This document shows positions 59,542-60,969 of a stretch of 64,000 bases of DNA, in pieces; position 1 is the first letter of the stretch; each line of letters begins with the position of its first letter. Under the pieces are notes generated by a model. The model was not told the origin of the DNA. It worked only from the letters and a program-made list of their open reading frames with translations, and did no database searches. Source of the stretch: Promethearchaeota archaeon Loki_b32 (lineage in GTDB: Archaea; Asgardarchaeota; Lokiarchaeia; Sigyniarchaeales; SOKP01); NCBI GenBank assembly GCA_005223125.1, contig NJBH01000001.1, positions 45,935 through 109,934 of the forward strand, written 5' to 3'. A program made the translations under genes and the position numbers.

Positions 59542-60969
59542 TTAACTTTGTATTTCAATTGCTTTATAATTATCAGTTGATTCTTTTCCACGTTCTATGT
59601 AAAAGAATTTGCTTGTTTCAGGGTTGAATTTTTCTTTTAAGATACTAAGTGCTTCTAATCCCTTTTGAAACTCATCACAAATAAAAAAGTCTATACTTGC
59701 ATATCCATGTTCTGGCCAAGTGTGAAGTGCTGCGTGGCTAGTTTCTAATATTGCTGCTACACTGTAGCCAAATGGATGATAATTATGATTATAAATATCA
59801 ATAACTTTCAGTTTTGCAGAAGTAAGTGAATCTAGAAATGCTTGAAATATAGTTTTATTATCCATGAGTATCTCTTTAGAAGTAAACCGCATTTCTCCAG
59901 TGAAGTGATATCCAATAGGGCGAAAAGTTAATTCTCTCCCATTTTTTAATTCAGAAGTATAGAGAGGCTGTGATTCATAGGTATAATTAGAGGGCGTGTT
60001 TGTAGTTATAACCGATTGTAGATAATAAAGATGGCTAAATTGCCCTATAATACTTGCTCCTGCGTAATGGTTAAAATTAGGAAGCATCTCTTTAACAATA
60101 AATCCATGATCTAATATTGATAATTGTACTTTTAATGTTTCTTCGGGAGGTTTATTTCCAAAACATAAAAAGCATTTTTTACCTATTACTGGATACAGTT
60201 TTCCTTTAATAGTAATGTTAGATTTAAGAACTTCTCTAGCTCTTTTTAAAAATAAGCGTAAGCCTTCATTAGTATAGGGGGGATCCATAACAACAATATC
60301 ATAATTATTTTGTATTTCTTTAGGACATGGATTCCTTAAATCATGGTGTATAATATTAAAATTTATTAATGATTTATCTAATGCTACTTTTGAAAGAAAG
60401 TCTAAAATTCGCTCATCGACATCCAAAACAGTGATTTCTTTTGCTAATCCAGTTAAAGCGACTGCGATTGACGTTGCATCATCATCACCAAGGAATATAA
60501 TTTTCCTTCCTTCAATCTCTCCCCTTTTAAGCAAATAAAAAGTACGTTTTAAAATTGTTAGTAAATTTGCATGAGATTGATCTAAAGCATATTCTGCTTT
60601 TGGACGATCATTTAAATATGTTTGTATTTCCTTTAGATAAGAAAATTCTTGTGGTATCTCGTCTAAAGTAAAATTAAACGTATTAGGAAAAGGATCGTAA
60701 TCGAGAACCAAATTTAAATTACTTTCCACCCATTTTTTTCCTTTTTCACCAAGAAATTTTTTATCAGCTATAATATCTGCTTTAACTAGCTCTCCCCTTG
60801 CTGCTGCTAGAGCAGGAATAGCGATTCCAGTTTTTTGAGCTACTTTTTTATTTTTAAGTATGGGAAAGCGATACATAATTAAAAGAATTGATCTAATTCC
60901 TTCCATACCTTCAGCTAATTGTGCTTTACTAGCTATTTTTGTAAGTATTTCTTCGGTTTCTGTATCCAT
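59542..60969 (-). CDS. Fusion: BpsA-like aminopropyltransferase (DUF43) + pyruvoyl S-adenosylmethionine decarboxylase (SpeH-type)
   Basis: The N-terminal/middle part, '[36 protein letters not shown]...[22 protein letters not shown]', is the BpsA/DUF43 core. The C-terminal '[32 protein letters not shown]' is the AdoMetDC class 1 self-cleavage (E-S) and core motif. Confidence 0.75.
   Translation of the reverse strand: [475 protein letters not shown]

Follow-up and report, generated by a model that had tools for sequence, protein, structure and literature searches.

A DPPYT-type PF01861 transferase fused to S-adenosylmethionine decarboxylase in Asgard archaea: a probable self-contained aminopropylation enzyme

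The gene at positions 59542–60969 on the minus strand of a 64,000-nucleotide stretch of contig NJBH01000001.1 from Promethearchaeota archaeon Loki_b32 (the window, by which the whole of that stretch is meant) encodes a polypeptide in which a transferase related to the branched-chain polyamine synthase BpsA (EC 2.5.1.128) is followed by S-adenosylmethionine decarboxylase (AdoMetDC), and the question raised by this locus is what such a protein makes. In an earlier reading of the DNA alone (the sequence-only reading), the transferase was taken for a BpsA-type enzyme of branched-polyamine synthesis, and the occurrence of a hyperthermophile enzyme in a low-GC Asgard genome was regarded as a puzzle. 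The comparisons described here indicate that the gene probably encodes a bifunctional, self-contained aminopropylation enzyme, both catalytic sites being intact and conserved by sequence (i.e., the processing and catalytic residues of AdoMetDC and a GDDD site of the type that holds decarboxylated S-adenosylmethionine, dcSAM). As judged from the same comparisons, the transferase half is a member of the PF01861 family that falls in a distinct 'DPPYT' subfamily and is not an orthologue of characterised BpsA.

The fusion gene and its distribution

In agreement with the sequence-only reading, which had described one polypeptide with a PF01861 transferase and a complete pyruvoyl AdoMetDC, the gene is a single uninterrupted open reading frame (ORF) along which both Pfam profiles were matched. 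PF01861 (BpsA_C, formerly DUF43) was matched by residues 113–333 (E 6.1e-44, 150.5 bits against a cut-off of 27), the last 30 or so profile positions having no match in the window protein, and PF02675 (AdoMet_dc) was matched over its full length by residues 355–461 (E 2.9e-25, 89.1 bits against a cut-off of 25). The AdoMetDC equivalog of NCBIfam, TIGR03330, was also matched (89 bits, cut-off 75.65), and no match of the protein to PF01564 (SpeE, spermidine synthase or SpdSyn) was obtained at E ≤ 0.1. The GDDD, DPPYT and HTWPE motifs quoted earlier were all present by translation, but the cleavage site, given then as Glu-Ser, is the Thr/Ser of 'LETSH'. Similarly, the AdoMetDC domain is complete but spans about 112 residues (350–461) plus a 14-residue tail, rather than the last 130 or so residues of the protein. 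The features of the gene, aligned with BpsA of Thermococcus kodakarensis (Tk), are as follows.

59542–60969, minus strand: whole gene for a 475-residue proenzyme, with an ATG start, no internal stop and the stop codon at 59542–59544
60640–60969, minus strand: winged-helix-like N-terminal domain, residues 1–110, the counterpart of the BpsA-family N-terminal domain
59971–60633, minus strand: Rossmann-type transferase domain, residues 113–333, PF01861 (BpsA_C), profile positions 4–211 of 243
60478–60489, minus strand: GDDD motif, residues 161–164, equivalent to Tk-BpsA Gly157–Asp160 (checked by translation)
60271–60285, minus strand: DPPYT motif, residues 229–233, with Asp229 equivalent to Tk Asp225 and Tyr232 in place of the BpsA-invariant Glu228 (checked by translation)
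60064–60066, minus strand: invariant Tyr302, equivalent to Tk Tyr290 of the acceptor site (profile alignment)
59950–59964, minus strand: tail motif L336-Y337-T338-S339-E340, at the position of the BpsA C-terminal aminopropyl-carrier tail 'ELY(N/D)DEE'
59923–60006, minus strand: inter-domain segment, residues 322–349, which includes the tail motif and is predicted to be flexible (pLDDT < 50)
59587–59922, minus strand: class 1b AdoMetDC domain, residues 350–461 (about 112 residues), followed by the 14-residue tail
59710–59724, minus strand: HTWPE motif (checked by translation)
59737–59742, minus strand: predicted autocatalytic cleavage site Thr410/Ser411, with Ser411 as the source of the pyruvoyl group
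59545–59739, minus strand: predicted alpha chain, residues 411–475 (65 aa), placed by alignment and by the known processing of class 1b AdoMetDC (PMC10407285)

Sequence matches in the PDB were to Tk-BpsA (5xnc, E 8e-26) and P. furiosus 2qm3 for the N-terminal part and to AdoMetDC of Thermotoga maritima (Tm; 1vr7/1tlu, E 4e-12) for the C-terminal part. An AlphaFold2 model made from 44 orthologues (mean predicted local distance difference test score, pLDDT, of 77) had two well-folded halves with low confidence at residues 322–349, and helices were predicted over residues 3–84 of the N-terminal domain, in which a weak HTH_24 match was noted at residues 26–67. When the PDB was searched with Foldseek, the first matches were the BpsA structures 5xnf, 5xnc, 2qm3 and 6j27 (E ~1e-17, ~345 columns), and those of the C-terminal domain were 1tmi (TM 0.85, root-mean-square deviation 1.6 Å) and 2iii from Aquifex.

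The prospect that the ORF is an artefact of assembly or a frameshift, uniting two neighbouring genes, is negligible. Separate transferase-speD pairs with the same order do exist in Bathyarchaeota, but the ORF of the window is uninterrupted, and a word-indexed search of NCBI, ENA, JGI and Logan sequences found the same length (471–482 aa), nearly full query coverage (97–100%) and both Pfam domains in at least 120 independent clusters of 60–99% identity, the named sources of which were Promethearchaeota/Lokiarchaeota, Thor-, Hod- and Hermodarchaeota. Among GTDB species-representative genomes, which come from different studies, 29 loci (L001–L029) were all from Asgard metagenome-assembled genomes (MAGs); both halves lay in one ORF in 27 of these, the other two ending at a contig edge, and the junction motif was conserved. 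An artefact was therefore rejected on the basis of conservation across independent assemblies, and the case that would have told against the sequence-only reading, an ORF that is really two genes, did not materialise.

When 1.84 billion representatives at 50% identity were searched exhaustively with phmmer, 4383 matches were obtained at E ≤ 1e-3 and 1021 at E ≤ 1e-10; the query was the whole protein, and some of the roughly 1,000 clusters at the latter threshold match the decarboxylase half alone. With the query cut into three pieces, no fewer than 29 of the top 150 representatives proved to have transferase and AdoMetDC in one chain. Asgard fusions among the representatives were from Odinarchaeota (P0122, 41% identity), Heimdallarchaeota (P0125, 35%) and Hodarchaeales (P0128), and the fusion was also found in the cultured bacteria Vagococcus fluvialis, V. 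silagei, Metaclostridioides mangenotii, Erysipelothrix sp., Enterococcus sp. and Xenorhabdus spp., which are mesophilic. The database check proposed with the sequence-only reading thus places the fusion in cultured bacteria as well as in Asgard lineages. A relative of the transferase half was encoded at no fewer than 497 loci in a scan of genome collections with an alignment of that half.

Fusions were of three length classes, namely about 445–480 aa (Asgard and Firmicutes), about 500–570 aa in Xenorhabdus, Enterococcus and others, where the two halves are separated by a zinc ribbon (CxxC...CxxC), and about 417–445 aa with a divergent N-terminus. They occupied at least four places in a neighbor-joining tree, the internal branches of which are very short and for which no support values were computed. 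In public annotation, fusions are labelled 'adenosylmethionine decarboxylase' or, in UniRef, 'N(4)-bis(aminopropyl)spermidine synthase'. A full-text literature search found no description of the fusion or of the DPPYT subfamily, an earlier description elsewhere being possible, and fusions, Asgard archaea and mesophile enzymes are all unmentioned in the 2026 review of branched-chain polyamines (PMC12979288).

The zinc ribbon, where present, follows the Y-T-x-E tail, either as the C-terminus of unfused proteins or as an insert between transferase and AdoMetDC in fusions of about 500 aa. Its bearers were P0140, P0142, P0146, P0147, P0149, P0158, P0159, P0202 and P0422–P0424 among the proteins and L030, L033, L048, L051, L065, L066, L078 and L080 among the loci, and it was absent from the Asgard/Firmicute class of about 445–480 aa.

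A maker and a user of dcSAM are likewise joined in one chain in bacterial AdoMetDC-spermidine/spermine synthase fusions, such as that of Ca. Pelagibacter (PMC11107197), proteins of this kind being represented here by P0454 and P0489 (PF02675+PF17284+PF01564), and both domains of the Pelagibacter protein have been shown to be active (PMC11107197). In those fusions, AdoMetDC is N-terminal, the transferase is of the SpeE family (PF01564) and the alpha chain stays on the transferase, whereas in the window protein AdoMetDC is C-terminal and the beta segment would remain attached.

The decarboxylase half

The C-terminal domain was aligned without gaps to 112 residues of T. maritima AdoMetDC (window residue = Tm residue + 348), the catalytic equivalents being E359 (Tm E11), S403 (S55), T410 (E62), S411 (S63), H416 (H68), E420 (E72) and C431 (C83). 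Compared with class 1b SpeD (Tm 1tlu, 1vr7 and 1tmi; Aquifex 2iii), the window protein keeps E11, S55, S63, H68, E72 and C83 and differs in the Thr that replaces Glu before the pyruvoyl Ser and in the 349-residue transferase tethered at its N-terminus. In the non-processing S63A mutant 1tmi, the substituted Ala lies opposite S411. Residues S63, H68 and C83 are essential for self-processing and catalysis (PMC10407285), and their equivalents S411, H416 and C431 were invariant in 44 Loki-type proteins and 26 diverse fusions.

The canonical Glu-Ser processing dipeptide is missing from the window protein, which has Thr410-Ser411. Thr was found at position -1 in 43 of the 44 Loki-type orthologues, canonical Glu-Ser in the Odin, Heimdall, Hod and Firmicute fusions and Asn-Ser-Asn in the third length class. 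Since Ser itself is the essential residue, the missing Glu-Ser does not bar membership of class 1b AdoMetDC. The residues 'Gln, Thr, Phe, Tyr' are diagnostic of the SpeD-derived ornithine decarboxylases SpeDC (PMC10407285), and the second halves of Desulfobacter-type SpeD-SpeDC proteins read Q-x-I-E-T/S-L-I-S-G-H-F...Y-L-D-I-F-S-C, which evidently puts the diagnostic Thr at -1. The presence of Thr at -1 in active pyruvoyl SpeDC makes Thr-Ser compatible with self-processing.

The same Thr can also be held against an AdoMetDC, as an unusual residue common to ornithine-decarboxylating SpeD homologues, and neofunctionalisation of SpeD is widespread (PMC10407285). On such grounds, the C-terminal domain might be a neofunctionalised SpeDC- or SpeDA-like decarboxylase that makes the acceptor (putrescine from ornithine or agmatine from arginine), with dcSAM coming from a separate speD. 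The SpeD-SpeDC fusions (PMC10407285) are, like the window protein, SpeD fusions of polyamine metabolism that have Thr at -1, but the window protein is without the Gln, Phe and Tyr markers, keeps HTWPE and has a transferase, not a second decarboxylase, as partner. Only one of the four SpeDC markers (the Thr) is therefore present, Ala occurring at -5 and Ser before I-D-F-F-I-C, and S-H-x-x-x-H-T-W-P-E is retained. This motif includes E420, which we take to bind ribose by analogy with human Glu247. In addition, the Odin, Heimdall, Hod and Firmicute orthologues keep the Glu-Ser pair, TIGR03330 is matched above its cut-off, unfused relatives of the transferase adjoin ordinary speD genes and no second speD occurs in the window. 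A decarboxylase of ornithine or arginine, largely rejected because of the marker count, thus appears very improbable, and the domain is most probably a genuine AdoMetDC as far as its residues can tell.

In the third length class (P0163, P0173, P0194, P0228, P0229, P0239, P0243 and P0266), the motif N/Q/T-S-N replaces E-S-H at the processing site, and two of these proteins have HTW(E/Q)E instead of HTWPE.

The transferase half, its genomic partners and its acceptor

BpsA (from T. kodakarensis and T. thermophilus; 5xnc, 5xnf and 6j27) and the window protein share PF01861 and the combination of winged-helix-like domain and Rossmann fold at about 22–28% identity, but AdoMetDC follows the tail only in the latter, for which the hosts are mostly non-thermophiles. 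Alignment of the Loki-type family with 17 authentic BpsAs by hhalign (probability 99.9%) covered residues 4–306 only, equivalent to BpsA 5–292. Within this region, D130-Q131 (Tk 126–127), GDDD 161–164 (157–160), D185 (181), D210-L-R (206–208), D229 (225) and Y302 (290) are conserved, as beyond it is a tail of the form 'hydrophobic-Tyr-x-x-acidic', and GDDD was invariant in every fusion class. In Tk-BpsA, D159 and D160 position dcSAM, GDDD holding its aminopropyl amine, while D225, E259, Y290 and Y316 activate the acceptor (PMC12979288). Of the last four residues, E259 falls in a 4-residue deletion (K273-P274-P275 of the window protein), and Y316 lies past the end of the profile alignment and is replaced by Gln, Asn or Ser when motifs are aligned. 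Moreover, Tk E228 is replaced by an invariant Tyr (DPPYT as opposed to DPPET) and E133 by Leu, the BpsA-invariant residues W293, Y295, P306, P311, W315/Y316 and R322 have no counterpart in the family of the window protein and about 16 residues of the BpsA 293–338 module are absent.

The aminopropyl group of BpsA is carried on a C-terminal acidic cluster consisting of E339, D342, D343, E344 and E345 (PMC12979288). In the window protein, this cluster has shrunk to L-Y337-T338-S-E340 with one conserved carboxylate, compared with four or five in BpsA, and the Tyr is followed by Thr and a variable residue rather than by Asp-Asp, the Y-T pair being invariant in every fusion class. The shortest unfused relatives end at this tail (L064 '...ALYTAET' and L063 '...AIYTQDVQ'), as BpsAs end with '...ELY(N/D)DEE(A/S)STT', and from this shared chain end at h-Y-T-x-E/D (h, hydrophobic) and ELYxDEE, the tail was regarded as a simplified homologue of the BpsA catalytic tail.

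Among the 229 closest relatives, 200 had DPPY and 16 had DPPE, the latter being authentic BpsAs (16 of 17 authentic BpsAs have DPPE). The 17 authentic BpsAs lay outside all 201 DPPYT-type sequences in a neighbor-joining tree of the catalytic core (short internal branches, no support values), and Tk-BpsA scored 94 bits against the query while the best 150 clusters at 50% identity all scored at least 122 bits. In a search with a Tk-BpsA fragment, authentic BpsAs were all of about 350 aa and unfused, and nearly all named sources were (hyper)thermophiles (i.e., Thermococcales, thermophilic Methanococcales, Archaeoglobi, Aquificae and Pseudothermotoga). The DPPYT subfamily, on the other hand, was found in Bathyarchaeota, Latescibacterota, Actinomycetota, Firmicutes and Asgard archaea. 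The label 'BpsA-type', in the sense of an orthologue of the branched-polyamine synthase, consequently had to be given up: the transferase is in a separate clade, Tk-BpsA is further from it than are over 150 clusters at 50% identity, the alignment ends at Tk 292, Glu259, Tyr316 and the acidic tail are lost or reduced and DPPET has become DPPYT. That a hyperthermophile enzyme should occur in a low-GC Asgard archaeon is for the same reason largely no longer puzzling, because the domain belongs to a large subfamily that occurs mainly in lineages not known as thermophiles.

Canonical unfused BpsA of about 350 aa was noted in the Asgard lineage Njordarchaeales (P0380 and P0392, 53–56% identity to the Thermococcus enzyme), while the other sampled Asgard lineages (L001–L029) have the DPPYT-AdoMetDC fusion instead. 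In Methanocaldococcus, L043 and L062 encode a DPPYT-type zinc-ribbon paralogue of 390–392 aa, and other members of the genus (P0340, P0352 and P0355) have authentic DPPET BpsA, a pattern that suggests two paralogous subfamilies with different roles.

A connection between the transferase and AdoMetDC was also evident where the two are not fused. Among the 51 non-Asgard-type loci in which adjacency was judged, speD lay immediately downstream on the same strand in 12 from Bathyarchaeota (L030, L031, L033, L034, L036, L037, L039, L040, L045, L048, L049 and L053) and in Clostridium argentinense (L078), the two genes following each other as the domains do in the fusion, and immediately upstream in a Heimdallarchaeote (L066) and in about 15 loci from Actinomycetota and Alphaproteobacteria. 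These unfused proteins (Bathyarchaeota L030–L053, L078, L066 and Actinomycetota) share GDDD, DPPYT and h-Y-T-x-E/D with the window protein at 31–37% identity and differ in that two separate genes are involved, that many have a C-terminal zinc ribbon and that some have a GNAT instead of AdoMetDC. Fusion and adjacency that recur over distant phyla are strong evidence for a functional link between transferase and AdoMetDC, and the unfused members beside speD support both a dcSAM-dependent aminopropyltransferase and an operon origin of the fusion.

Other partners bear on the acceptor. The fusion of Metaclostridioides and that of Xenorhabdus each stand alone behind a gene for a TetR regulator, no gene for a diamine-forming enzyme being close by, and a gene that moves alone must have a common or ubiquitous acceptor. 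In Vagococcus, a 144-aa GNAT is encoded 24 bp downstream of the fusion (L081/L082, 9362–9796), and some Bathyarchaeota transferases carry a zinc ribbon and a GNAT domain with speD adjoining (553 aa; L040, 7956–9617). Small GNATs are typical polyamine acetylases. The combination of a lone-moving module with a small GNAT favours a free di- or polyamine as acceptor, without fixing the compound or the position of attack, and the pairing with acyltransferases of different folds suggests that the aminopropylated product may often be N-acylated. The conserved partner in the Latescibacterota/Gemmatimonadota clade is an acyltransferase of the LPG_synthase_C type.

LPG_synthase_C (PF09924) forms one 713-aa protein with the transferase in P0171 and is encoded beside it in Latescibacterota and Gemmatimonadota (L035–L061, cluster c6).

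Several results weigh against a self-contained enzyme of polyamine aminopropylation. No speD was found within 8 kb of the Latescibacterota/Gemmatimonadota members and no other recognisable polyamine gene in the Asgard neighbourhoods of the fusion. The BpsA acceptor residues E259 and Y316 and the multi-acidic tail are absent or reduced, so that the ping-pong mechanism of BpsA may not apply. In addition, the arrangement of the two domains in the model is unreliable (predicted template modelling score, pTM, of 0.49; linker pLDDT < 50), and channelling of the donor can thus be argued from tethering only. As a separate matter, a search of the window and of 80 related loci, which says nothing about whole genomes, found neither a conventional speE (tblastn with SpdSyn sequences) nor a second speD, the genes for which a search had been advised.

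Two other views of the transferase were weighed. According to the sequence-only reading, it would be a true branched-chain polyamine synthase, making N4-aminopropylspermidine or N4-bis(aminopropyl)spermidine in a non-thermophile with its own supply of dcSAM. The best structure and sequence matches in the PDB are indeed Tk-, Pf- and Tt-BpsA, and the window protein has kept GDDD, Asp229, Tyr302, its N-terminal domain and an acidic tail that includes a Tyr. However, authentic BpsAs form an exclusive clade outside the 201 DPPYT-type sequences (94 versus at least 122 bits), Glu259 is deleted, Tyr316 and most of the 293–338 module are gone, four to five acidic carriers are reduced to one and Glu228 has become an invariant Tyr. 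Moreover, the DPPYT copy of Methanocaldococcus (L043 and L062) stands against authentic BpsA in other members of that genus (P0340 and P0355). This view was accordingly considered unlikely. Alternatively, the acceptor could be other than a free polyamine, with side chains of proteins, nucleic acids, lipid head groups and precursors of secondary metabolites as examples. The winged-helix-like N-terminal domain is highly conserved, and the fused or adjacent acyltransferases are of three folds (GNAT, LPG_synthase_C and 2-oxoacid_dh), which could mean a multi-step modification; Li et al. (cited in PMC10407285) reportedly described, in 2019, an AdoMetDC with a role outside polyamine synthesis, which was counted as a precedent. 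Against this, a small cationic amine suits D229, Y302 and the tail held in common with BpsA, the gene passes between distant bacteria as one unit and a small GNAT is equally well explained by polyamine acetylation, so that an acceptor of this kind was rated less likely still. The acceptor of the window protein would thus most likely be a di- or polyamine.

For the self-contained aminopropylation enzyme, the following course of reaction is proposed. The proenzyme would cleave itself at Thr410/Ser411 into a transferase-beta chain of 410 residues and a pyruvoyl alpha chain of 65, so that the beta chain would be left on the transferase as the sequence-only reading had said. The alpha chain would stay non-covalently bound to the beta segment, itself tethered to the transferase through a flexible linker, and the pyruvoyl site would decarboxylate S-adenosylmethionine to dcSAM. 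The transferase would take up dcSAM, with GDDD161–164 holding the aminopropyl amine and D185 and D210 the nucleoside, and the aminopropyl group would pass to a common cellular amine bound close to the L-Y337-T338-x-E340 tail and to D229, Y232 and Y302, methylthioadenosine being released. Because the decarboxylase starts about 10 residues past the tail, which in BpsA is both lid and carrier, synthesis of the donor may take place at the entrance to the acceptor site. The channelling from donor synthesis to transfer claimed previously is plausible in its logic, but it is argued from tethering, the model with its pTM of 0.49 giving no confirmation of the geometry. The fusion itself probably arose from a transferase-speD gene pair like that seen in Bathyarchaeota.

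The product need not be branched. The tentative preference, at somewhat less than even chances, is for a linear triamine or tetra-amine or else for a diamine or agmatine bearing an added aminopropyl group; an N4-branched product like those of BpsA is somewhat less likely and was considered improbable.

Implications, neighbouring genes and other features of the window

The results point to a large uncharacterised branch of the BpsA family that is tied to dcSAM by fusion and operon structure. The BpsA family is treated in reviews as a speciality of thermophiles, and aminopropyl-transfer chemistry in mesophiles may exceed that of the SpeE family alone. Since the fusion is conserved over the sampled Asgard lineages and labelled 'adenosylmethionine decarboxylase', metabolic reconstructions of these archaea, the closest archaeal relatives of eukaryotes, probably miss its transferase activity. 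Its occurrence in culturable, genetically tractable bacteria (Vagococcus fluvialis, Xenorhabdus and Metaclostridioides mangenotii) means that the product can be determined without growing an Asgard archaeon. The fusion also bears on the origin of the polyamine and hypusine supply of eukaryotes. As a speculation with rather low odds, DPPYT-type PF01861 proteins could be a second class of dcSAM-dependent aminopropyltransferase, independent of SpeE and widespread in mesophilic bacteria and archaea, and Asgard archaea (including Heimdall- and Hodarchaeales) could depend mainly or wholly on the fusion for spermidine or another triamine, and so for the substrate of aIF5A (deoxy)hypusination. If this were true, archaeal relatives of the eukaryotic host would have made polyamines by machinery that is not homologous to eukaryotic SpdSyn and class 2 AdoMetDC.

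The fusion gene is apparently monocistronic, being convergent with a Caroten_synth-family gene (58509–59396) and divergent from an acyltransferase gene (61234–62067). Asgard loci showed two recurrent gene orders, the conserved neighbours being a methyltransferase, a Cys-rich protein, a PadR-like regulator, ABC transporter parts, ARPP-1, a helix-turn-helix (HTH) protein and the Caroten_synth-family protein. The acyltransferase gene (plus strand) encodes a stand-alone 277-aa PF00198 catalytic domain (2-oxoacid dehydrogenase acyltransferase) that adjoins the fusion in nine Loki-type loci, all of one subclade (the window, L001–L004, L006, L008, L014 and L029); it lies 62–70 bp downstream on the same strand in seven of them and is divergent in the window and L001, the adjacency surviving inversion. 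Near the fusion in loci of synteny type A is a conserved block of three genes (55134–58399, minus strand), which encode a 457-aa protein with a weak C-terminal MIT match (22 bits, below the cut-off), ARPP-1 (PF20208) and an ArsR-type HTH protein. A group II decarboxylase dependent on pyridoxal phosphate (PF00282; 47071–48417, minus strand), about 11 kb away, could supply an amine but is not syntenic in other loci.

Scans of the window for tRNA genes and Rfam families found nothing. The gene at 19464–20348 (plus strand) encodes a 294-aa protein that lacks a Pfam match, has hydrophobic segments at both termini and carries an extended tract of C-x-C repeats (CQCNCECQCLNECQCVCDCECQCQNDCQCVCDCECQC). 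A Ras/Roc-family small GTPase with a C-terminal extension of about 240 residues (5551–6690, plus strand) and a Roadblock/LC7 protein (14365–14757, plus strand) are of kinds common in Asgard genomes. The window has a GC content of 30.1%, as opposed to the 28% or so stated previously; the Asgard host proposed at the same time was confirmed, the nearest genome locus being from a Promethearchaeota MAG (82% identity) and the Ras-family GTPase and Roadblock/LC7 genes lying in the window itself.

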